From Escherichia phage JS10, in the sequence record EU863409: 64,000 nt of DNA; one strand, 5' to 3'. Shown piece after piece: positions 2,462-59,904 of the stretch (position 1 is the first letter of the stretch; every line of letters begins with the position of its first letter). The notes under the pieces were generated by a model that was not told where the DNA came from, made no database searches, and saw only the letters and a program-made list of their open reading frames with translations. The translations under genes and the position numbers were made by a program.

Positions 2462-3055
2462 TTACTTAAGTGAATTAATGTAGTCGTCGATATCGGCAGA
2501 AGTCGTATCCATTCCAACTTGTGGGCCTTTAAACGTTTCTACACGTAGCAGGGTATCTTCAATATCAATCTTAGTCAGTGCAGCGATTTCAACCACATCA
2601 TCGGCAGTAGCAATACCAAGGGCAGCCATATTACGAGTTTCACGGATGTACTCGAGCTTAACAGCCAGTTCCTGACGAGAGTCATCAAGTTCCTTGACCT
2701 TCAGTTTAATTTCATTACGCATTTCGATATAATCGTCAGCTTTCTTACGAAGTTGAGTGGCTGTACGACGATAAAGGAGGCCGAGTTTAGCATGTACCTG
2801 AACATCGGCGCCTTCGGCAATCAGTTTACGAATTTCGCGTTCTTTAGAAGCAGCCAGTTGGTCTTTTTCATTTGCCAATGCACGAATGCGTTTTTCTTCA
2901 TTCACAGACTTAACATGAGCAGTCTGGAGTTCGGTAATTTTATCAATCAGGGTAGAAGCAGCTTTAGTATACTGGTCTTCGATTGACAGGTTCTGAGTCA
3001 TTGCGGTACCCAGTTTAGAACGGATGAACTCAACAATTTTCTTTAAAGTATTCAT
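2462..3055 (-). CDS. coiled-coil protein, possibly PspA/IM30-like
   Basis: About 198 aa from Met with SD GAAGGAAA; long charged heptad-like helical sequence; PspA resemblance is compositional only. Confidence 0.4.
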
Positions 3056-3098
3056 AGTATTTCCTTCAGTCGGTTGGTATTTTGTAATCCATGAGGAC

Positions 3099-3128
3099 AT
3101 TATACCCTGTCCTCTGAGGGTTGTAAAC
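3099..3128 (-). promoter_or_regulatory. sigma70-type early promoter (GTTTACA-N17-TATAAT)
   Basis: Minus-strand GTTTACA and TATAAT 17 nt apart, directly upstream of 2462-3055 gene. Confidence 0.5.
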
Positions 3129-3132
3129 ATTT

Positions 3133-3546
3133 TTATTTCATTTTGGCGAGGCAGATTTCATTGGCTTCCCATTGAGCTTGCTTAATAATAGCTTTGGATA
3201 CAGGAACCTTTTGACCATAAGTTTTTGACGTTGAGAGAACAATATATTTGTTTGCCTCATTATGCCAACCTAGTGATTTTTCACCATGACTACCTTTAAC
3301 CACAGCTGACACCTCAACAGAGCAACCACCATCAGAAATCTTGGTTTCTACAATCCATTCATTTCTCTCGGCAGCTTCAATTTCCGATCTCCTTTTTTCT
3401 TCATACATGGCGGCCCAATCAGTTTTTGCCAAGCTGAAAGTAAGAGCTTTCTCTAATTCTTTGGCAGCTTTTTGTTGTTCAGGCGTTAATGAATTGTACA
3501 ACTCTTGCATTTCTTTATCTTCGATATTCATTATGCTCTCCTTCAC
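3133..3546 (-). CDS. hypothetical protein
   Basis: 137-aa ORF with upstream early-type promoter. Confidence 0.45.
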
Positions 3547-3566
3547 TCCGTTGTTTTGATAGGTCT

Positions 3567-3595
3567 ATAGTATCATATTCTACGAAAGAGTAAAC
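3567..3595 (-). promoter_or_regulatory. early-type promoter GTTTAC-N17-TACTAT with conserved downstream element
   Basis: Minus strand GTTTAC...TACTATAGACCTATCAAAAC; copy of a recurring motif. Confidence 0.45.
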
Positions 3596-3619
3596 ATCTT
3601 TTTTAAACTTTTAGAAACA

Positions 3620-3646
3620 AAAAAGGCCCAACCTTTCGGAAGGGCC
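3620..3646 (-). terminator. rho-independent terminator, repeated element copy 1
   Basis: GGCCCAACCTTTCGGAAGGGCC hairpin followed by U-run on minus strand; 29-bp identical to copies at 4242-4269 and 51444-51471. Confidence 0.55.
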
Positions 3647-3651
3647 TCGAA

Positions 3652-4206
3652 TCAGTTCTTGTAGAACCGGAATGGGTTCACGTGGAAGGCTAACATAGCT
3701 TTAGGGATTTTACGAGACAAAAGGCTCTTAAGCTTCCAGCCACAGTAAACGCGAAGGTAAAATGTGATTCCGCCGACCTTAAGATAAGGAACTGAAGCAA
3801 ATACACCCCAGGCATCATCATTCCACATCCACAACCAACCATGGTGGGCTTTATCAGGAGAACCTGATTCTACGTCAGGATTACCACGATAATGGAATTC
3901 CGAGCTACAATCACGGCCTAGTTTATGATAAGCAAAGTTATAAGCTTTATTTCGCCATAGCCAAGCTACTCTCTGGAGATAAACACCGCCAGGCATTTTC
4001 CTGATTTTAGCCCAACGTTTAATATGACCTTTATCGCCGTCAATTGGATTATCGTATGTCATCATCCAATCAAAACCATATGGCAATTTACCAGTCTTTT
4101 TATTATGAAAAGGAACCACAAAAGGCGCAAGGATAACGGCTAGAACCATAGAGATAAAATCTAGTGGGACCAACAGAATCCAACTCAAATATTTTAAAAG
4201 TTTCAT
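3652..4206 (-). CDS. hypothetical membrane-anchored protein
   Basis: 184 aa with N-terminal hydrophobic segment; minus-strand TATAAATA 27 bp upstream. Confidence 0.5.
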   Translation of the reverse strand: MKLLKYLSWILLVPLDFISMVLAVILAPFVVPFHNKKTGKLPYGFDWMMTYDNPIDGDKGHIKRWAKIRKMPGGVYLQRVAWLWRNKAYNFAYHKLGRDCSSEFHYRGNPDVESGSPDKAHHGWLWMWNDDAWGVFASVPYLKVGGITFYLRVYCGWKLKSLLSRKIPKAMLAFHVNPFRFYKN

Positions 4207-4232
4207 ATTATTTCCTAAGTTAGTTTACTGTA

Positions 4233-4240
4233 TATTTATA
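4233..4240 (-). promoter_or_regulatory. late promoter box TATAAATA
   Basis: Exact T4 late-promoter octamer on minus strand upstream of gene starting at 4206. Confidence 0.5.
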
Positions 4241-4241
4241 C

Positions 4242-4269
4242 AAAAAAGGCCCAACCTTTCGGAAGGGCC
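4242..4269 (-). terminator. rho-independent terminator, repeated element copy 2 (after tRNA cluster)
   Basis: Same hairpin GGCCCAACCTTTCGGAAGGGCC with 6-nt U-run on minus strand. Confidence 0.55.
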
Positions 4270-4439
4270 TTTAACCTAGGGTAGCCTTGTCGGGGTTCCA
4301 CCTGCTAGGCAAGTGTTCTGTGCGCCGTTTCAGCTGTGAGATAAGGGACTTTAAGAGGAACTCATGTACTCCTTAAAGTCGGGTCTTATTCAGGGAACTT
4401 CAGTCCGACGACTTACCGGTAGCGACCCGGTTTCTTGTT

Positions 4440-4515
4440 TGGTCGAGACAGTAGGGATCGAACCTACGACCTACGGTTTAGAAGACCGTTGCTCTTCCTT
4501 CTGAGCTATGCCTCG
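4440..4515 (-). tRNA. tRNA-Arg (anticodon TCT)
   Basis: Manual cloverleaf: acceptor CGAGGCA/TGTCTCG, D-stem GCTC/GAGC, anticodon stem ACGGT/ACCGT with loop CTTCTAA, T-stem GTAGG/CCTAC, T-loop TTCGATC, encoded CCA; 76 nt. Confidence 0.85.
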
Positions 4516-4519
4516 TATT

Positions 4520-4594
4520 TGGCGGACATGCATGGATTCGAACCATGGACCAATTGATTAACAGTCAACTGCTCTACCACTGAGCTACACATCC
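4520..4594 (-). tRNA. tRNA-Asn (anticodon GTT)
   Basis: Manual cloverleaf: D-stem GCTC/GAGC, anticodon loop CTGTTAA, T-stem CATGG/CCATG, T-loop TTCGAAT, 3-prime GCCA; 75 nt. Confidence 0.85.
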
Positions 4595-4598
4595 AAAT

Positions 4599-4672
4599 TG
4601 GTGGCCCTGGGTGGAATCGAACCACCATCCAGCGATTATGAGTCGCTCGCTTGACCGTCCAGCTACAGGGCC
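4599..4672 (-). tRNA. tRNA-Met or tRNA-Ile2 (anticodon CAT)
   Basis: Manual cloverleaf: acceptor GGCCCTG/CAGGGCC, anticodon stem AGCGA/TCGCT with loop CTCATAA, T-stem GGTGG/CCACC, T-loop TTCGATT, ACCA end; 74 nt. Confidence 0.8.
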
Positions 4673-4677
4673 TTAAT

Positions 4678-4950
4678 TTAAATTACAAATCCAGCAGGAG
4701 CATTATCATCTTTAGCCATGTGCTGAATTGTATGATAAGTCATTTCTTCAGGAGCAACCAGATAAGCCGCAGCATTAACTAGTGGAATTATTTTTGGTTT
4801 AGCGAATGTGCTATCGGCAATTGCCATAAAGGGCTCGCCGTCGGTCTCAACTTCGCCAAATTGACATTCATATGAAATAGAACAACGTTTAGTAGTTGTT
4901 GTCTTGGTTTCTGGGTCATAAAAAGCTAATTTTAATACTAACATAAACAC
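4678..4950 (-). CDS. hypothetical protein
   Basis: 90-aa ORF upstream of tRNA cluster. Confidence 0.4.
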   Translation of the reverse strand: MFMLVLKLAFYDPETKTTTTKRCSISYECQFGEVETDGEPFMAIADSTFAKPKIIPLVNAAAYLVAPEEMTYHTIQHMAKDDNAPAGFVI

Positions 4951-5073
4951 CTCAAATAAAATTAAGTAAAGTAAGTTTGATTAATAGACCTTGTCTATTA
5001 TGAAAGGCTCTTTGAGGGAAGAACCTTTGGTAATAGAGGGTATTAATGATAGAGTAATAATATCACATAATTC

Positions 5074-5559
5074 TTAAAGCATATCAAGTGCTTTCACATC
5101 AGGGATTTTAATTTCTTCTTCAATAATATACAGCTTAACGTAAGAAATTACACGGATGAAATCACCATCATATTCACAAGCCATACCAAGGAGCTCAGTA
5201 AGGGCTTCATTCAAGTAGTATTCTTCCTCGTCGTCATTCAGCAAGGCTTCTAAGTCTTGGATACCGAGGGCCTTATCTAAAAATTCAGGGGTCAACTGGC
5301 CTGATTTTACACCCGATTCAATGTAGGCTATAACCAGATGCTTAACTACGTCCCATTCCGAATTACCACATTTATCCGGGTTGTTGCAATGCGAACCATG
5401 GAAAAGTTCTAGGATATATTTGTACTGTTGGATTTCATGTTCTTCTACGCCAAATACAGTCTGGGTTTTATAGTTATCGCCATCATTTTCCCAGGTTTCA
5501 ATTTCAATCACATAACCTTTAGGGATAGTTTGTCCGAATTTAATATTCATTGTGGCCAC
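5074..5559 (-). CDS. hypothetical protein
   Basis: 161-aa ORF; overlaps next gene start. Confidence 0.5.
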   Translation of the reverse strand: MATMNIKFGQTIPKGYVIEIETWENDGDNYKTQTVFGVEEHEIQQYKYILELFHGSHCNNPDKCGNSEWDVVKHLVIAYIESGVKSGQLTPEFLDKALGIQDLEALLNDDEEEYYLNEALTELLGMACEYDGDFIRVISYVKLYIIEEEIKIPDVKALDML

Positions 5560-6424: not shown

Positions 6425-6460
6425 TTTATTCTCCAATCACTCATTTGTTTTGATAGGGCT

Positions 6461-6490
6461 ATAGTATCATCACTAAAGCCCGTTGTAAAC
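6461..6490 (-). promoter_or_regulatory. early-type promoter GTTTACA-N18-TACTAT with conserved downstream element
   Basis: Minus strand GTTTACA...TACTATAGCCCTATCAAAAC upstream of 6239-6424. Confidence 0.45.
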
Positions 6491-6492
6491 AC

Positions 6493-6786
6493 TTATTTTG
6501 TAATTTCTTTGATTTTAGAAACTACTTTATCTTTGGTAAGACCGGAAAAAGTCTTATATTTTGTAAAGTGGATATCATCACCAAGATTAATATAATATTT
6601 CTTTTTAACCGTATTGAATGCTATACTAACAGGTTTACCATTTACTGTAATAGTAATTTGCTGAGCCTTATCAACATCACCTGAGCCAAAGGCTCTTTTA
6701 ATATCGCTACTAATATCGGCCATAGCCGCTTTGTTAATGGAATACAAATCTGTCGATTCTTTGATAAATTCTTGATAAGTTTTCAT
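6493..6786 (-). CDS. internal-protein-like head protein with capsid targeting sequence
   Basis: Starts MKTYQEFIKE, resembling the T4 IP N-terminal CTS MKTYQEFIAE; IKE motif compatible with gp21 cleavage. Confidence 0.6.
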   Translation of the reverse strand: MKTYQEFIKESTDLYSINKAAMADISSDIKRAFGSGDVDKAQQITITVNGKPVSIAFNTVKKKYYINLGDDIHFTKYKTFSGLTKDKVVSKIKEITK

Positions 6787-6836
6787 TTTTTTGTTTCCGT
6801 TAGGTTGGGTTTGTTTTGATAGGTCTATAGTATCAT

Positions 6837-6865
6837 GCCTATAGACCTTGTAAACATCTTTTTAA
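6837..6865 (-). promoter_or_regulatory. early-type promoter GTTTACA-N17-TACTAT with 10-bp inverted repeat
   Basis: Minus strand GTTTACA AGGTCTATAG gcatgata CTATAGACCT ATCAAAAC; perfect palindrome across the -10 region. Confidence 0.45.
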
Positions 6866-6866
6866 A

Positions 6867-7780
<914 letters not shown>

Positions 7781-25395: not shown

Positions 25396-27795
25396 ATGAT
25401 TAACAAATTGGAACTTAGTGAGTTACCATTTGTTGACGGCGTACCTGATGCTCCTCAAAAGCGTATCCAATGGATACGCGAGGGTGATTGTATGTCTGCG
25501 GCAAAAACAAAATACGGCAATGAAGGTAATTTGAACGCTGCTGCTTTAGGAGTTCAGAAAAACGTAGAAGCTCTTGATGCCAACGATTTAAAAACTGCTG
25601 ATAAAGTTAATGAGCTTATAGAAAACGTTAATAATATCAATGACGCTTTAGAAATGTCAACAGATATTTCTATCATTCAACAAATAGAGAAAAACCGTGT
25701 TGATATTGTAGACCTTAAAAAAGTCACCGAAGATACAACAGAAAAATTGGACACCTTAACAACCAATTTTGATTTCTTGCGTGAAGATGTTGGTTATCAT
25801 GACCCTTTACAAGACGGCCCATATTTAACTGTACGTGAAAATATTGTTCTTCTTAAAACTGAAATAGGTCATTATGAAAACCAGGATATAAACGGCAATC
25901 CACTGCCTCCTGGCGAAACTAATGAAGCCACTGGTATAAAACGCCGCATCATGGATAATACCACTGAATTGGTGGACCATCGTCTCCGCCTTGATACCCT
26001 TGAAAGAAACTATGAAGATTCTGATGTTGGACAATTGGGTATTAAATTAAATGAAATTCGCGCCGAATTAGGACCACATTCTGATACGGTAGGTAAACAA
26101 CCTGCATATACCCGAATTTCAGTATTAGAAACGGCTGCAGTTAATTTTAATACAGCTATTGACGAAATTAAGGATAATATTGATTTCTCTGGTATGCCTA
26201 TAAAGGACCGAGTAACTACTTTAGAAAGCAAAACCTTTACCTTAGAAAATTCGGTTAATGTTGATTTAAAACCTAGAGTAACTTCTATAGAAACTCAAAT
26301 CGGATCCGAGTCTGCACCGGCATCTATTAATGGTCGTTTAAGCGGACTTCGTACTGATGTAAATGATTTAAAAACCGTAGTAGGTGTTAGTTCAAGTGAT
26401 GGCCTACGTTTCCAAGTTACTGATATCAACCGCCGTTTAGGTAGTGAAGTATCTCCGGCTGCAGGAACCATTAATAAGCGTTTAAATGATGTTATTATTC
26501 AAGCAAACCAATCCACCTCGTCTATCCAGGATATTCAGGTAAAAATTGGTAACAACCAATCCGGTATTAAGGGTACTTTACTTAAACTCACCGATAAGGT
26601 TGACGGGACGAACCCTAACGGAGCTACCGTAGAAGAACGTGGTCTTATTAATGCGGTTACTTCTTTAGAAACCCAGATGCAAGGTAAATTAGGTGATGCA
26701 CCTTCTGATGGTAAACTCTATGCACGTCGAAATGCGGCATGGGCTGAAGTTGTTAATAATTCCACAGAAATAGAAACCGTTAAAGCCGATTTAGTTGTTA
26801 CCGACGGTAAAGTGACCGCGTTAACTTCCAGAGTAGATGGTAATGATACCTCAATTTCTTCTCTTGATACTCGTACCGGTGCATTAAACACTTCGGTTGG
26901 CGAGATTAAAGCTGATATAGTTTCTATAAAGGCTAAAGATGATGAACAGGATGGTCGTTTAACAGCACTTGAATCTAGTGATGTGACCATTAACGGTAAA
27001 ATTGCTGCTCTTGAAACTAAGACAGATACCACTGATGATGATGTCACAGCACTGGCTTTAGACGTTTCTTCTTTAGAGAACCAATTGACTCCTATAAAAG
27101 CCGATATTACCAAAAACAAAGGTGATATTGTTGCCTTAACTGGTCGAGTGGCTTCTACTGAAGGCGAAATTAATGCAATTAAAGTTGATACAGCCAAAAT
27201 TGCTCCTTTAACAACTAGAGTTACTACGGCAGAAGGTAAAATCACTACTTTAGAAACAGGGCTTGCCGCTGTTAAAGTCGAATCCGATAAGGTAGCAGGT
27301 ATTAATACCCGCCTTAGCACTGCAGAAGGTGACATCGGAACACTTAAAACAGGGTTGGCTGAAGTTAAGGGTGAATCCGATAAAGTAGCAGCTATAGATA
27401 CCCGTTTAGGTGTTGTTGAAGTTGAATCAGGTAAAGTAGCAGGAATCGATGCTCGTTTGGGTGATGTTGAAGGCGAAGTTAGTACTCTTGAAACGGGTTT
27501 AGCTGCCGTTAAAGTCGAATCCGATAAGGTAGCAGGTATTAATACCCGTTTAGGTACGGTCGAAGGTAAAGTTGGTACTCTTGAAACAGGTTTGGCTGCT
27601 GTTAAAGTTGAATCTGATAAAGTTGCTGACTTAGGAACCCGTTTAACCGCCGCCGAAGGTAAAATTACGGCCTTAGAAACAGAATTATCTAAACGTCCAC
27701 CGGTGGCTCCTGCCGCAGACGGACTTCCGTATGTTCTGGTTGATAACGCATGGGTATTATTGTCTGATTTTGTGACTTTAAACTCAGCGCCATAA
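25396..27795 (+). CDS. wac: fibritin (wac), expanded 799-aa form
   Basis: N-terminus LPFVDGVPDA... and foldon-like C-terminus DGLPYVLVDNAWVLLSDF match T4 fibritin; extra length is tandem repeats. Confidence 0.95.
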   Translation: MINKLELSELPFVDGVPDAPQKRIQWIREGDCMSAAKTKYGNEGNLNAAALGVQKNVEALDANDLKTADKVNELIENVNNINDALEMSTDISIIQQIEKNRVDIVDLKKVTEDTTEKLDTLTTNFDFLREDVGYHDPLQDGPYLTVRENIVLLKTEIGHYENQDINGNPLPPGETNEATGIKRRIMDNTTELVDHRLRLDTLERNYEDSDVGQLGIKLNEIRAELGPHSDTVGKQPAYTRISVLETAAVNFNTAIDEIKDNIDFSGMPIKDRVTTLESKTFTLENSVNVDLKPRVTSIETQIGSESAPASINGRLSGLRTDVNDLKTVVGVSSSDGLRFQVTDINRRLGSEVSPAAGTINKRLNDVIIQANQSTSSIQDIQVKIGNNQSGIKGTLLKLTDKVDGTNPNGATVEERGLINAVTSLETQMQGKLGDAPSDGKLYARRNAAWAEVVNNSTEIETVKADLVVTDGKVTALTSRVDGNDTSISSLDTRTGALNTSVGEIKADIVSIKAKDDEQDGRLTALESSDVTINGKIAALETKTDTTDDDVTALALDVSSLENQLTPIKADITKNKGDIVALTGRVASTEGEINAIKVDTAKIAPLTTRVTTAEGKITTLETGLAAVKVESDKVAGINTRLSTAEGDIGTLKTGLAEVKGESDKVAAIDTRLGVVEVESGKVAGIDARLGDVEGEVSTLETGLAAVKVESDKVAGINTRLGTVEGKVGTLETGLAAVKVESDKVADLGTRLTAAEGKITALETELSKRPPVAPAADGLPYVLVDNAWVLLSDFVTLNSAP
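27235..27690 (+). repeat. tandem coding repeats (about 90 bp) in wac
   Basis: Repeated LETGLAAVKVESDKVAGINTRLxTxEGxIGT units visible at DNA and protein level. Confidence 0.8.
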
Positions 27796-41182: not shown

Positions 41183-41211
41183 TTTTAATCTCCTCATGTT
41201 TTGATAGGTCT

Positions 41212-41241
41212 ATAGTAACACGTGGGAACCTTGCTGTAAAC
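41212..41241 (-). promoter_or_regulatory. early-type promoter GTTTACA-N18-TACTAT with conserved downstream element
   Basis: Minus strand GTTTACA...TACTATAGACCTATCAAAAC immediately upstream of 40916-41182. Confidence 0.45.
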
Positions 41242-41247
41242 AACTTT

Positions 41248-41255
41248 TATAAATA
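41248..41255 (+). promoter_or_regulatory. late promoter box TATAAATA (gene 24)
   Basis: Exact octamer 29 bp upstream of gp24 ATG. Confidence 0.6.
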
Positions 41256-41283
41256 AACATATACCCTCAATAAGGAAAGCGCA

Positions 41284-47535: not shown

Positions 47536-47562
47536 CGGGAGAGCGAAAGCTCTCCCGTTTTT
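47536..47562. terminator. bidirectional rho-independent terminator between convergent hoc-like genes
   Basis: CGGGAGAGC-gaaa-GCTCTCCCG, 9-bp stem, flanked by AAAA upstream and TTTTT downstream. Confidence 0.8.
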
Positions 47563-49720: not shown

Positions 49721-51217
49721 ATGCAAATTCAAGTACATTTTGATAATTTTAGTCATGTTCGTGTCGAGTGTGATGAATCCACCTTCTACGAACTCAGAGA
49801 CTATTTCAGCTTTGAAGCTGATGGATATAAATTTAACCCTAAATACCGTTACGGGCAATGGGATGGGAGAATTCGTCTTCTAGATTATAACCGTAAACTT
49901 CCATATGGTCTAGTCCCACAAATTAAAAAATTCGCTGACCAGTTTGAATACTCTCTGTGGATTGACCCACGTATTCTTGAACAGGAAGATATTTCTCGCG
50001 AAGATTTTGACTCATGGGTAGCTTCACAAGAGATTTATTCAGGTTCTACCAAGATTGAGCCGCATTGGTATCAGAATGAAGCCGTATACAACGGTCTGAC
50101 GAAACGTCGTGCAATTCTGAATTTACCTACATCTGCAGGTAAATCATTGATTCAGGCGCTCCTGAGTAGATATTATGTTGAGAACTATGAAGGTAAAATT
50201 CTTATCTTAGTTCCTACTACTGCACTTGTTGACCAGATGATTAATGACTTCATTGATTATCGTTTGTTCCCTAAAGCTGCTATGCTTGGTATTCGTTCAG
50301 GTACTGCTCGTGATTCCGATGCAATGATTTATGTTTCAACTTATCAAACGGCTATTAAACAACCTAAAGAATGGTTTGCTCAGTTTGGTATGTTTATGAA
50401 CGACGAATGCCATTTGGCGACAGGTAAATCAATTTCTACCATCATCGAAGGCCTAACCAATTGTATGTTTAAATTCGGTTTGTCTGGTTCTTTAAAAGAC
50501 GGTAAAGCCAATTTAATGCAATATATGGGTTTGTTTGGTGATGTGTTTAAGCCAGTATCCACTTCGCAGTTAATGGAAGAAGGACAGGTTACAGACCTTA
50601 AAATCAACAGTATTTTCCTTCGTTATCCGGATGAATTCACTGTTAAGATGAAAGGTAAAGATTACCAATCAGAAATAAAGGTCATTACTAAGGCTACTCG
50701 TCGTAATAAATGGGTTGCTAATTTAGCTGTTAAACTCGCTAAGAAAGAAGAGAACGTATTCCTGATGTTTAAAAACATCGAACACGGTAAAACTCTTTTT
50801 GAAATGGTTAAAGAGCAACATAAAGAAGTTTATTACGTATCAGGTGAAGTTAATACCGAAACGCGTAATGCTCTGAAAGTAATGGCGGAAAATGGTAAGG
50901 GTATTATTGTTGTGGCAAGTTATGGTGTGTTCTCTACTGGTATTTCCGTTAAGAACCTTCATCATGTTGTATTTGCTCATCCGGTAAAATCCAAAATCAT
51001 TGTACTCCAGACAATCGGTCGTGTACTCCGTAAACATGCTTCTAAATCAACAGCACAAGTTTGGGACATTATAGACGACATGGGCGTTAAGCCTAAATCA
51101 GCAAATGCTAAAAAGAAATATGTTCATTTGAATTATGCATTAAAACATGCCTTAGAACGTATTCAACGTTATGCTGACGAGAAATTTAATTACGTAATGA
51201 AACAGGTGGATTTATGA
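49721..51217 (+). CDS. uvsW: UvsW DNA/RNA helicase
   Basis: 498 aa; near-colinear with recalled T4 UvsW incl. LNLPTSAGKS, MNDECHLATGKS (DECH box), VVASYGVFSTGISVKNLHHVV, ADEKFNYVMK. Confidence 0.97.
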   Translation: MQIQVHFDNFSHVRVECDESTFYELRDYFSFEADGYKFNPKYRYGQWDGRIRLLDYNRKLPYGLVPQIKKFADQFEYSLWIDPRILEQEDISREDFDSWVASQEIYSGSTKIEPHWYQNEAVYNGLTKRRAILNLPTSAGKSLIQALLSRYYVENYEGKILILVPTTALVDQMINDFIDYRLFPKAAMLGIRSGTARDSDAMIYVSTYQTAIKQPKEWFAQFGMFMNDECHLATGKSISTIIEGLTNCMFKFGLSGSLKDGKANLMQYMGLFGDVFKPVSTSQLMEEGQVTDLKINSIFLRYPDEFTVKMKGKDYQSEIKVITKATRRNKWVANLAVKLAKKEENVFLMFKNIEHGKTLFEMVKEQHKEVYYVSGEVNTETRNALKVMAENGKGIIVVASYGVFSTGISVKNLHHVVFAHPVKSKIIVLQTIGRVLRKHASKSTAQVWDIIDDMGVKPKSANAKKKYVHLNYALKHALERIQRYADEKFNYVMKQVDL

Positions 51218-51441
51218 AGTCCTTTAAAGAAGTTATCTATGAAGCCTCTATCGAGAGCTTCATGTCTAAAATTAGTTCTTGTCAGACCATGGAAGGTCTG
51301 GAGGAATTAGAGAAGTATTACAAAACTCGTAGTAAGGAAGCCGAACTTCGTGATTCGGATGATATCAGCGTACGCGATGCATTGGCTGGTAAGAGAGCCG
51401 AATTGGAGTCGATGGACGACGAGGAAGAGGAAGATTTCTAA
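51214..51441 (+). CDS. uvsW.1: UvsW.1-like small protein
   Basis: 75 aa immediately after uvsW (ATGA overlap); size matches T4 UvsW.1. Confidence 0.75.
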   Translation: MKSFKEVIYEASIESFMSKISSCQTMEGLEELEKYYKTRSKEAELRDSDDISVRDALAGKRAELESMDDEEEEDF

Positions 51442-51443
51442 AC

Positions 51444-51471
51444 AAAAAAGGCCCAACCTTTCGGAAGGGCC
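51444..51471 (-). terminator. rho-independent terminator, repeated element copy 3
   Basis: Same hairpin and A-run as copies at 3620 and 4242; oriented to stop leftward uvsY-region transcripts. Confidence 0.55.
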
Positions 51472-51501
51472 AATAACCATAAAATGGCTATACACACTAG
51501 A

Positions 51502-51669
51502 CTAAAGTAATAATTGTGTTTCGTTCAGCTGTTCTTCAGTGTTTTCCGTAACAGGCATGCTTTGAACGTAATTATAACATGAACCCGGATGAACCGGACC
51601 TTTTTCTGTTTCAACAACCAATGCAGCATCGATTGGAGTTTTACAGACAACGCAAATCTTATCTGACAT
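51502..51669 (-). CDS. small CxxC-containing protein (uvsY.-2 position)
   Basis: 55-aa ORF below track cutoff, found by manual translation: MSDKICVVCKTPIDAALVVETEKGPVHPGSC...; AAGGAG SD. Confidence 0.45.
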   Translation of the reverse strand: MSDKICVVCKTPIDAALVVETEKGPVHPGSCYNYVQSMPVTENTEEQLNETQLLL

Positions 51670-59521: not shown

Positions 59522-59527
59522 CAAAAA

Positions 59528-59547
59528 AGGAGAGCTTACGCTCTCCT
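59528..59547. terminator. bidirectional hairpin terminator after gene 54
   Basis: AGGAGAGC-ttac-GCTCTCCT with A-run upstream and T-rich downstream; between convergent genes. Confidence 0.65.
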
Positions 59548-59846: not shown

Positions 59847-59874
59847 AATGTTCTCCTCATGTTTGTGTAAGGTA

Positions 59875-59904
59875 ATAGTACCACATCCTTGTGGTGTTGT
59901 AAAC
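59875..59904 (-). promoter_or_regulatory. early-type promoter GTTTAC-N18-TACTAT
   Basis: Minus-strand hexamers with CCACA-nnnn-TGTGG hairpin in the spacer. Confidence 0.4.

Follow-up and report, generated by a model that had tools for sequence, protein, structure and literature searches.

The window, by which we mean the whole 64-kb stretch of phage DNA analyzed here, is 98.6–98.8% identical to Escherichia phage JS98 (Straboviridae, Tevenvirinae, Dhakavirus) and carries three copies of a short hairpin element that we call T*. Two of the copies lie in a region that contains a tRNA cluster, an RNA gene, a single protein-coding gene of the DUF7338 family and an early promoter, and the third lies at the junction of uvsY.-2 and uvsW.1 (Table 1). 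We number the sites as the copies. Each copy is located 5–50 nt 3' of a minus-strand gene or RNA and is co-oriented with it. Copy 1 begins 5 nt past the DUF7338 stop codon, copy 2 starts 48 nt after the homologue of rnaD, and copy 3 lies 30 nt after the uvsY.-2 stop codon.

Table 1. Features at the three T* sites, with their coordinates in the window.
Feature	Position	Strand	Basis and remarks
Early sigma-70-type promoter	3567..3595	minus	-35 box GTTTAC at 3590-3595, 17-nt spacer, TG-n-TACTAT, -10 box at 3567-3572
T* copy 1	3619..3646	minus	Hairpin 3625-3646 plus U6 (A-run 3619-3624 on the plus strand); exact match, fold, own scan
DUF7338 gene (JS98 orf136 homologue)	3652..4206	minus	Open reading frame list; Pfam PF24027, E=4.6e-63
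Late-promoter motif TATAAATA	4233..4240	minus	Follows the copy 2 U-tract by 1 nt and precedes the DUF7338 start codon by 26 nt
T* copy 2	4242..4269	minus	Putative terminator of the tRNA / rnaD-like unit; exact match, fold, own scan, T4 comparison
rnaD (T4 species 2 RNA) homologue (about 4318-4434) and conserved 3' trailer (4270-4317)	4270..4434	minus	By-eye alignment with the T4 annotation
tRNA-Met, tRNA-Asn, tRNA-Arg cluster	4440..4672	minus	ARAGORN, Rfam; upstream of copy 2 and in the same transcription unit
uvsW.1	51214..51441	plus	Convergent; stop codon 51439-51441, 2 nt from the A-run of copy 3
T* copy 3	51444..51471	minus	After uvsY.-2; exact match, fold, T4 comparison
Small second hairpin UAUAGCCA-UUU-UGGUUAUU	51473..51491	minus	Between the uvsY.-2 stop codon and copy 3; fold
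uvsY.-2 (DUF2685)	51502..51669	minus	Last gene of the minus-strand 25-uvsY unit, which copy 3 is proposed to end

A pattern search of the 64-kb window that allowed up to three mismatches returned the 29-mer CAAAAAAGGCCCAACCTTTCGGAAGGGCC as exact plus-strand matches at 3618–3646, 4241–4269 and 51443–51471, with no further match elsewhere in the window. This bears out the three identical copies claimed in the preliminary description of this DNA and, because the base before the 29-mer (an A) is also shared by all of them, the identity extends to 30 nt (3617–3646, 4240–4269 and 51442–51471; repeat family D10). The 29-mer did not occur in any of 100 dinucleotide-preserving shuffles of the window, and GGCCC-N12-GGGCC was absent from the window outside the three copies. 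The count over a complete genome that had been proposed as a check was run on JS98 (170,523 bp) and gave exactly three copies of the 22-nt core, at the same sites; T* is therefore not a genome-wide repeat, and the window contains its full set of copies.

In the minus sense, the RNA of all three copies reads GGCCC-UU-CC-GAAA-GG-UU-GGGCC, followed by UUUUUU-GU. Since an A-run precedes the hairpin on the plus strand in every copy, the U6 tract lies 3' of the hairpin on the minus strand and the functional reading is that of the minus strand, which confirms the orientation first proposed for all three. The stem consists of five basal G-C pairs and a CC/GG segment closed by a GAAA tetraloop (GNRA), and it is interrupted below the tetraloop by a 2x2 internal loop. 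This had been described as an AA/AA bulge; an internal loop is indeed present, but in the transcribed sense it is a tandem U-U loop. ViennaRNA folds of the minus sense in 46-nt context gave −15.1 to −17.8 kcal/mol (z −2.4 to −3.3), while the plus sense in the same context gave −12.6 to −15.5 kcal/mol, the minus sense being more stable by 2.3–4.0 kcal/mol. Our own terminator scan, in which ViennaRNA was applied to every run of at least five T in the window, returned about six compact strong candidates in the 64 kb. All six have GNRA loops and three of them are the T* copies, the T* hairpin alone being assigned −13.9 kcal/mol. A simple promoter and terminator scan of the window called none of the three copies (0/3), because that scanner needs an uninterrupted stem and the T* stem is broken by the internal loop.

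Copy 2 was said in the preliminary description to follow the tRNA cluster. We found that it belongs to the same unit but does not abut the tRNAs, as a rnaD homologue of about 117 nt directly after tRNA-Arg and a trailer of about 48 nt that leads into copy 2 lie between them. The rnaD and trailer region is conserved in 742 phage records (BLAST). A homologue of rnaC (species 1) is absent from the window, where the join reads ...GGCGCACAGAA|CACTTGCC...; rnaC is located between rnaD and the trailer in T4, in Mosigvirus-type genomes and in some Gaprivervirus-type genomes. An Rfam search of positions 3000–5500 and of two related loci returned tRNAs only, with no family for T*, the rnaD-like RNA or rnaC.

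Two of the three T* sites have a counterpart in T4 (AF158101). There, tRNA-Arg, rnaD, rnaC and a trailer (…GGTGGAACCCCGACAAGG…) are followed by the hairpin GCCCC-GA-CC-GAAA-GG-UU-GGGGC-U5, and a published table for a T4-type phage lists a near-identical sequence under the name "RNA C" terminator (PMC5931544, Table 2). Copy 2 resembles the T4 hairpin in its position after tRNA-Arg, rnaD and the trailer GGTGGAACCCCGACAAGG, in its GAAA loop and in its 3' arm GGUUGGG; the two are identical at 18 of 22 positions, with a U-tract in both. They differ in the basal stem (GCCCC/GGGGC in T4, GGCCC/GGGCC in T*), in the tract (U5 versus U6) and in the inner 5' positions, which are GA in T4, where the stem is fully paired (G-U, A-U), and UU in T*. 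In addition, T4 has rnaC between rnaD and the trailer, whereas the window does not. Between uvsY.-2 and uvsW, T4 carries GGCCC-UU-CC-UUUUU-GG-UU-GGGCC-U6, the stem of which is the T* stem, and a uvsY.-2 terminator is named in a T4 terminator list (PMC5931544). Copy 3 has the position, the stem and the U6 of this hairpin and differs in its loop, which is UUUUU in T4 and GAAA here. For a T4-type phage, ARNold reportedly gave no prediction of the uvsY.-2 terminator (PMC5931544), and common terminator predictors miss the T* class of hairpin owing to its internal loop.

The finding that copies 2 and 3 lie at the positions of two listed T4 terminators is the strongest available support for reading T* as a Rho-independent (intrinsic) terminator for minus-strand transcripts, used three times. 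We put the probability of this reading at roughly 0.85. The terminator suggested in the preliminary description is supported by the hairpin, the U6 tract, the co-orientation with the upstream gene and the match in position to T4. The sequence, the fold, the placement and the T4 match are direct observations from which we infer termination itself, and our literature search found no Term-seq data or 3'-end map of T4 or a Dhakavirus; a paper on the termini of IME08 deals with terminase cut sites and not with T*. In the proposed explanation, the GGCCC/GGGCC stem capped by CC-GAAA-GG would form just upstream of U6 and release E. coli RNA polymerase, and a hairpin at the 3' end should also shield the RNA from 3' exonucleases. 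Copy 2 would end the tRNA/rnaD unit and insulate the late promoter directly behind it, copy 1 would end the DUF7338 gene and insulate the early promoter of the next gene, and copy 3 would end the gene 25-uvsY-uvsY.-2 unit at its meeting point with the convergent uvsW.1. For annotation, T* would place the 3' ends of three transcription units in phages of the JS98 type, candidates for phage therapy.

T4-type genomes commonly carry the same short terminator hairpin at several dispersed sites, and in this respect T* is an ordinary stop signal. The CUUCGG hairpins of T4 were reportedly described by Tuerk et al. in 1988. For a T4-type phage, GGACUCC-UUCG-GGAGUCC is listed after soc and 30.9, and GGGGC-UUCG-GCCCC after e.6 and hoc (PMC5931544, Table 2). 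T* is like these tetraloop terminators (C(UUCG)G or GNRA) in being a short, G+C-rich hairpin found in near-identical form at dispersed intergenic sites, but it combines a 2x2 pyrimidine internal loop with GAAA, whereas the recurrent T4 hairpins combine a perfect stem with UUCG. What is new here is the match of copies 2 and 3 to T4, the lineage-specific homogenization of these two sites, a proposed origin of copy 1 by module insertion and the conserved U-U loop.

T* in its exact form appears to be a feature of JS98-type phages. A search of 2.9 million viral contigs for the 22-nt core returned 14 stretches, with three exact copies each in JS98, IME281 and vB_EcoM_005 and two each in VR5, QL01 and IME341. 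A BLAST search of the 30-mer against 50,697 phage records matched 48 of them, with 28–30 nt exact and one to three exact places per record; the records whose taxonomy was checked were Dhakavirus, and the other names were those of known JS98-type phages. Two T4-like contigs of about 175 kb (174,436 bp, with loci L060 and L076, and 176,227 bp, with loci L067 and L086) each contain two dispersed hairpins of the form AAAGCCCCUUCC-UUUC-GGUUGGGGC-U5-7, which have the T* family stem and a loop variant common to both copies in the genome. The relaxed pattern CCCTTCC-N3-6-GGTTGGGSCYTTTT was found in 96 viral stretches and, in 596 Gb of bacterial DNA (one genome per species), in 57 stretches. None of these was from Enterobacteriaceae, and the T*-type hairpin was therefore not borrowed from the host. 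The matching uncultured contigs at loci L074 and L065 had no nucleotide match to cultured phages; these hairpins may represent convergence, as the database is large, and we claim no homology for them. One contig (IMGVR_UViG_2974739009, 121,442 bp) was considered as a T5-like carrier, implying exchange between T4-like and T5-like phages, and was rejected when the contig proved to be Escherichia phage phiE142, which has 95% identical BLAST matches in T4-type coliphages of about 167–171 kb, such as PhAPEC2 and ST2.

The motif TATAAATA is the T4 late-promoter consensus. It occurs 19 times in the window against 8.1 expected, and its placement immediately after the site-2 terminator is also found in several T4-type phages. 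Because this late motif is the sole recognizable promoter before the DUF7338 gene, the label "early gene", which had been attached to the gene upstream of site 1, is unsupported. The DUF7338 gene constitutes a 623-bp module between copies 2 and 1. Beyond it, an early promoter that drives the orf133 homologue lies 23 nt downstream of the copy 1 U-tract. The hairpin borders an AT-rich region, and about 30 nt separate it from the -35 box downstream. This promoter belongs to a repeated promoter family (D5/D8), and the same promoter precedes e.8 in vB_EcoM_005 and QL01.

Comparison among close relatives suggests how copy 1 may have arisen. Gene order from the tRNA cluster to e.6 differs in almost every Dhakavirus examined, and T* is found at the module boundaries. 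In the Dhakavirus dhaeg, which has two T* copies, the order is tRNAs, rnaD, T*, TATAAATA and orf135, and the DUF7338 gene is absent. In JS98, the order is T*, TATAAATA, DUF7338, T*, TATAAATA and orf135, with DUF7338 flanked by direct repeats of the terminator and the late-promoter core that reach through GTATAAATA. DUF7338 followed by T* is also present in vB_EcoM_005 and QL01, placed after a different gene and terminator, and VR5 lacks both the T* copy after DUF7338 and nearly all of orf135. The presence or absence of the module is observed directly, and from the arrangement we infer that copy 1 is a duplicate that goes back to insertion of the DUF7338 module at the terminator/late-promoter cassette; such an insertion would have produced a module flanked by direct repeats.

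Other changes in this region left junctions of their own. The VR5 junction (locus L020, about 3050–3130) reads …TGCCCAGTTCGAAAAGACC… and is similar to orf135 at its 3' end as well as to CCTTCCGAAAGG in the T* loop region, suggesting that the T* copy and orf135 were lost there by a microhomology deletion. The window is without orf135 and e.8, about 1 kb that is present in JS98 (window 3531–3600 compared with JS98 locus L001, 3531–3900). In the window, orf133 is joined to the promoter and leader of e.8, with the fusion point inside the Shine-Dalgarno region (GAAGGAGAG|CATAATG), which suggests that e.8 was lost by a deletion between two similar ribosome-binding sites.

These rearrangements raise the possibility that T* is chiefly a recombination cassette, a short homology for inserting, deleting or swapping modules, perhaps via excised mini-circles, with termination as a secondary property. 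Promoter-early stem-loops (PeSLs) have been described in RB49/phi1, PST and nt-1 as conserved, repeated stem-loops with terminator activity that lie by a promoter at the borders of small variable genes and are linked to indels that distinguish close relatives (Arbiol et al. 2010, PMC2839356; Comeau et al. 2014, PMC4122927). They are defined by a strong early sigma-70 promoter with a stem-loop within or beside it, number about 50 per genome in RB49/phi1, and PeSL-like sequences were noted in JS98 (PMC2839356). T* is like them in being a stem-loop that adjoins a promoter at the boundaries of variable-gene modules, and a cassette of this type would fit the bracketing by copies 1 and 2 of a single-gene module that some close relatives have and others lack, the extended flanking repeat of JS98, the module boundaries of the variable region from the tRNAs to e.6 and the repeated-family early promoter that follows copy 1, published PeSLs being terminator/promoter cassettes that mediate such shuffling (PMC2839356, PMC4122927).

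However, T* is also unlike PeSLs in having three copies per 170 kb rather than about 50, a canonical U-tract and one copy (copy 3) that lies in conserved core sequence and has no indel at its hairpin. Its promoter neighbors are late at site 2, early at site 1 and none at site 3, whereas the PeSL promoter is an early sigma-70 promoter; only copy 1 precedes one. The breakpoints described above also fall outside T*, as two Shine-Dalgarno regions meet where e.8 was lost, and in VR5 the deletion took the whole copy. Furthermore, the sequences past the U-tract differ between arrangements, so simple crossovers between one T* and another are not an explanation. T* resembles PeSL cassettes but is not a PeSL by definition. 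We regard a chiefly recombinational function as possible, although not as the favored account, and it is compatible with the intrinsic terminator as an added role.

The identity of copies 2 and 3 requires a separate account. Written as basal 5' arm, inner 5' positions and loop, site 2 is GCCCC / GA / GAAA in T4, GCCCC / UU / GAAA in Gaprivervirus-type genomes and GGCCC / UU / GAAA in Dhakavirus, while site 3 is GGCCC / UU / U5, GCCCC / UU / U4-5 and GGCCC / UU / GAAA, respectively. The two sites differ from each other in T4 and Gaprivervirus and are identical in Dhakavirus. The Dhakavirus sequence looks like a T4 site-3-type stem combined with a site-2-type loop, now on both sites, 47 kb apart. 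In an unbiased set of 32 site-3 loci fetched through an alignment of the UvsY.-2 protein, a GAAA loop was found only in Dhakavirus. RB43-like and KP15-like genomes have two copies each, with their own shared loop, UUUC.

Convergent selection on one optimal sequence may also have made the copies identical, but loop variants are common to the copies within a genome and yet specific to the genus, a pattern that favors copying or gene conversion over convergence on an optimum. The comparison points to copying or gene conversion as the event that equalized sites 2 and 3 in the Dhakavirus lineage and to purifying selection as what has since kept them identical across diverged genomes, with the mechanism and direction as our interpretation. 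Copies 2 and 3 would go back to a pair of related terminators that differed in sequence, as they do in T4 to this day. In the ancestor of Dhakavirus, copying or gene conversion between short homologies would have given both the same sequence, and purifying selection on the stem would since have held all copies identical. Homogenization is not universal, as site 2 of the Dhakavirus IME341 has the GCCCC variant and a trailer like that of Gaprivervirus, which indicates that mosaicism occurs. The preliminary description had offered a selected element or recent copying, and both halves appear to hold: site 1 looks like a duplicate, and sites 2 and 3 look homogenized yet kept. T* may serve as a small, clean case of dispersed regulatory hairpins turned identical in one lineage and of a terminator/promoter cassette that brackets a mobile single-gene module. 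Both agree with the genome plasticity that the PeSL publications describe for T4-type phages.

To describe variation in the hairpin, we pooled orthologues of site 3 with those of site 2, which were fetched through the conserved trailer, and aligned the 16 distinct hairpins over a nine-position stem. One compensated change was observed directly: the second pair is C-G in 12 of 16 hairpins, G-C in the other four and broken in none. The other six true pairs are invariant in all 16 and uninformative on compensation. Loops vary among GAAA, U4, U5, UUUC, UUAC, UUAU, UUGC, UCGC and A7. Such a combination of a constant stem with variable loops is what purifying selection on a terminator stem would be expected to leave. 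In 14 of 16 hairpins, pyrimidines face each other at the two inner positions (UU/UU or UU/UC); pairing there (GA/UU, AG/UU) is confined to Tequatrovirus site 2. The alignment has one oddity, in that Watson-Crick pairs have not arisen by drift at the inner U-U positions. The T* stem and its pyrimidine 2x2 loop might together be a shared recognition element across T4-like genera, either for an RNA 3'-end factor or as a preferred short homology for recombination, which we consider doubtful. In the second case, T4-type recombination would use the element to copy terminators between distant sites and to insert or excise single-gene modules. Terminator sequences within a genome would then evolve in concert.

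At site 3, copy 3 lies between convergent genes, 2 nt past the uvsW.1 stop codon, and its hairpin folds in the plus sense too (−12.6 kcal/mol). It could in principle be bidirectional and also end the plus-strand uvsW/uvsW.1 transcript. The plus strand, however, has AAUAACCAUAAAAU after the hairpin and no U-tract, the T4 orthologue likewise is without one, and the plus-sense fold, which has A-A/A-A as its internal loop, is weaker. We consider a second, plus-strand function of copy 3 unlikely. No promoter follows this copy. A coding reading was rejected, as only short unsupported open reading frames cross it (51307–51495 and 51350–51505). At the position of the second hairpin (51473–51491), other genera have AACCA-UUUU-UGGUU, AGCCAAC-UUG-UUGGUU and AGCCAC-UUUU-GUGGUU, and its pairing seems to be maintained across genera.

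A processing or protein-binding role, which had also been raised for the element, found no support. Under this reading, a phage or host factor (an RNA-binding protein or nuclease) would recognize or process T* and thereby fix its sequence. Such a factor might be expected from inner positions that stay pyrimidine-pyrimidine while the adjoining loop varies freely, from their never being Watson-Crick at site 3, where a single U-to-A change would pair them, and from the repeated use of the same nine-position stem within RB43-like and KP15-like genomes. Against this, Tequatrovirus site 2 pairs the inner positions, so the internal loop is not required, and distant relatives (loci L215, L224, L230 and L231) have unrelated hairpins at site 3. 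The annotated T4 rnaC also ends about 60 nt upstream of the hairpin, which places the hairpin outside the annotated stable RNA, and any short terminator stem under selection would show stem invariance. We judge a recognition or processing site to be quite improbable.

A chance repeat or an assembly artefact is hardly credible, given the shuffles and the same three sites in the independently sequenced JS98, IME281 and vB_EcoM_005. A mobile element or MITE was rejected, as T* has no terminal repeats beyond the hairpin, no target duplications and three copies only.

Several other repeats were observed in the window. A family of early promoters of the form GTTTAC ... TG-n-TACTAT shares the leader TAGACCTATCAAAACAA, with minus-strand members at 6444–6506 and 6810–6872 and related copies at 3550–3612, 41195–41257 and 59852–59884. 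The promoters at 6444–6506 and 6810–6872 have an inverted repeat of 9–10 bp over the -10 box (GGTCTATAG/CTATAGACC and GGGCTTTAG/CTATAGCCC) with matching changes, and the fold z-scores of their stems are −6.1 and −3.8; these two are closer than T* to PeSLs as defined in the literature. Two further terminators, CGGGAGAGC-GAAA-GCUCUCCCG-U5 at 47536–47562 (plus strand) and GGAGAGC-GUAA-GCUCUCC-U6 at 59523–59546 (minus strand), are related to each other and have the common stem core GGAGAGC/GCUCUCC. Diverged direct repeats were found at 27139–27645 (four overlapping 177-nt units, 60–77% identity) and as the pairs 61434–61904/63528–63998 (about 2.1 kb apart) and 42349–42542/43638–43831 (about 1.3 kb apart), with lengths of 95–266 nt and 70–82% identity. 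These are probably within-gene repeats and paralogous genes.
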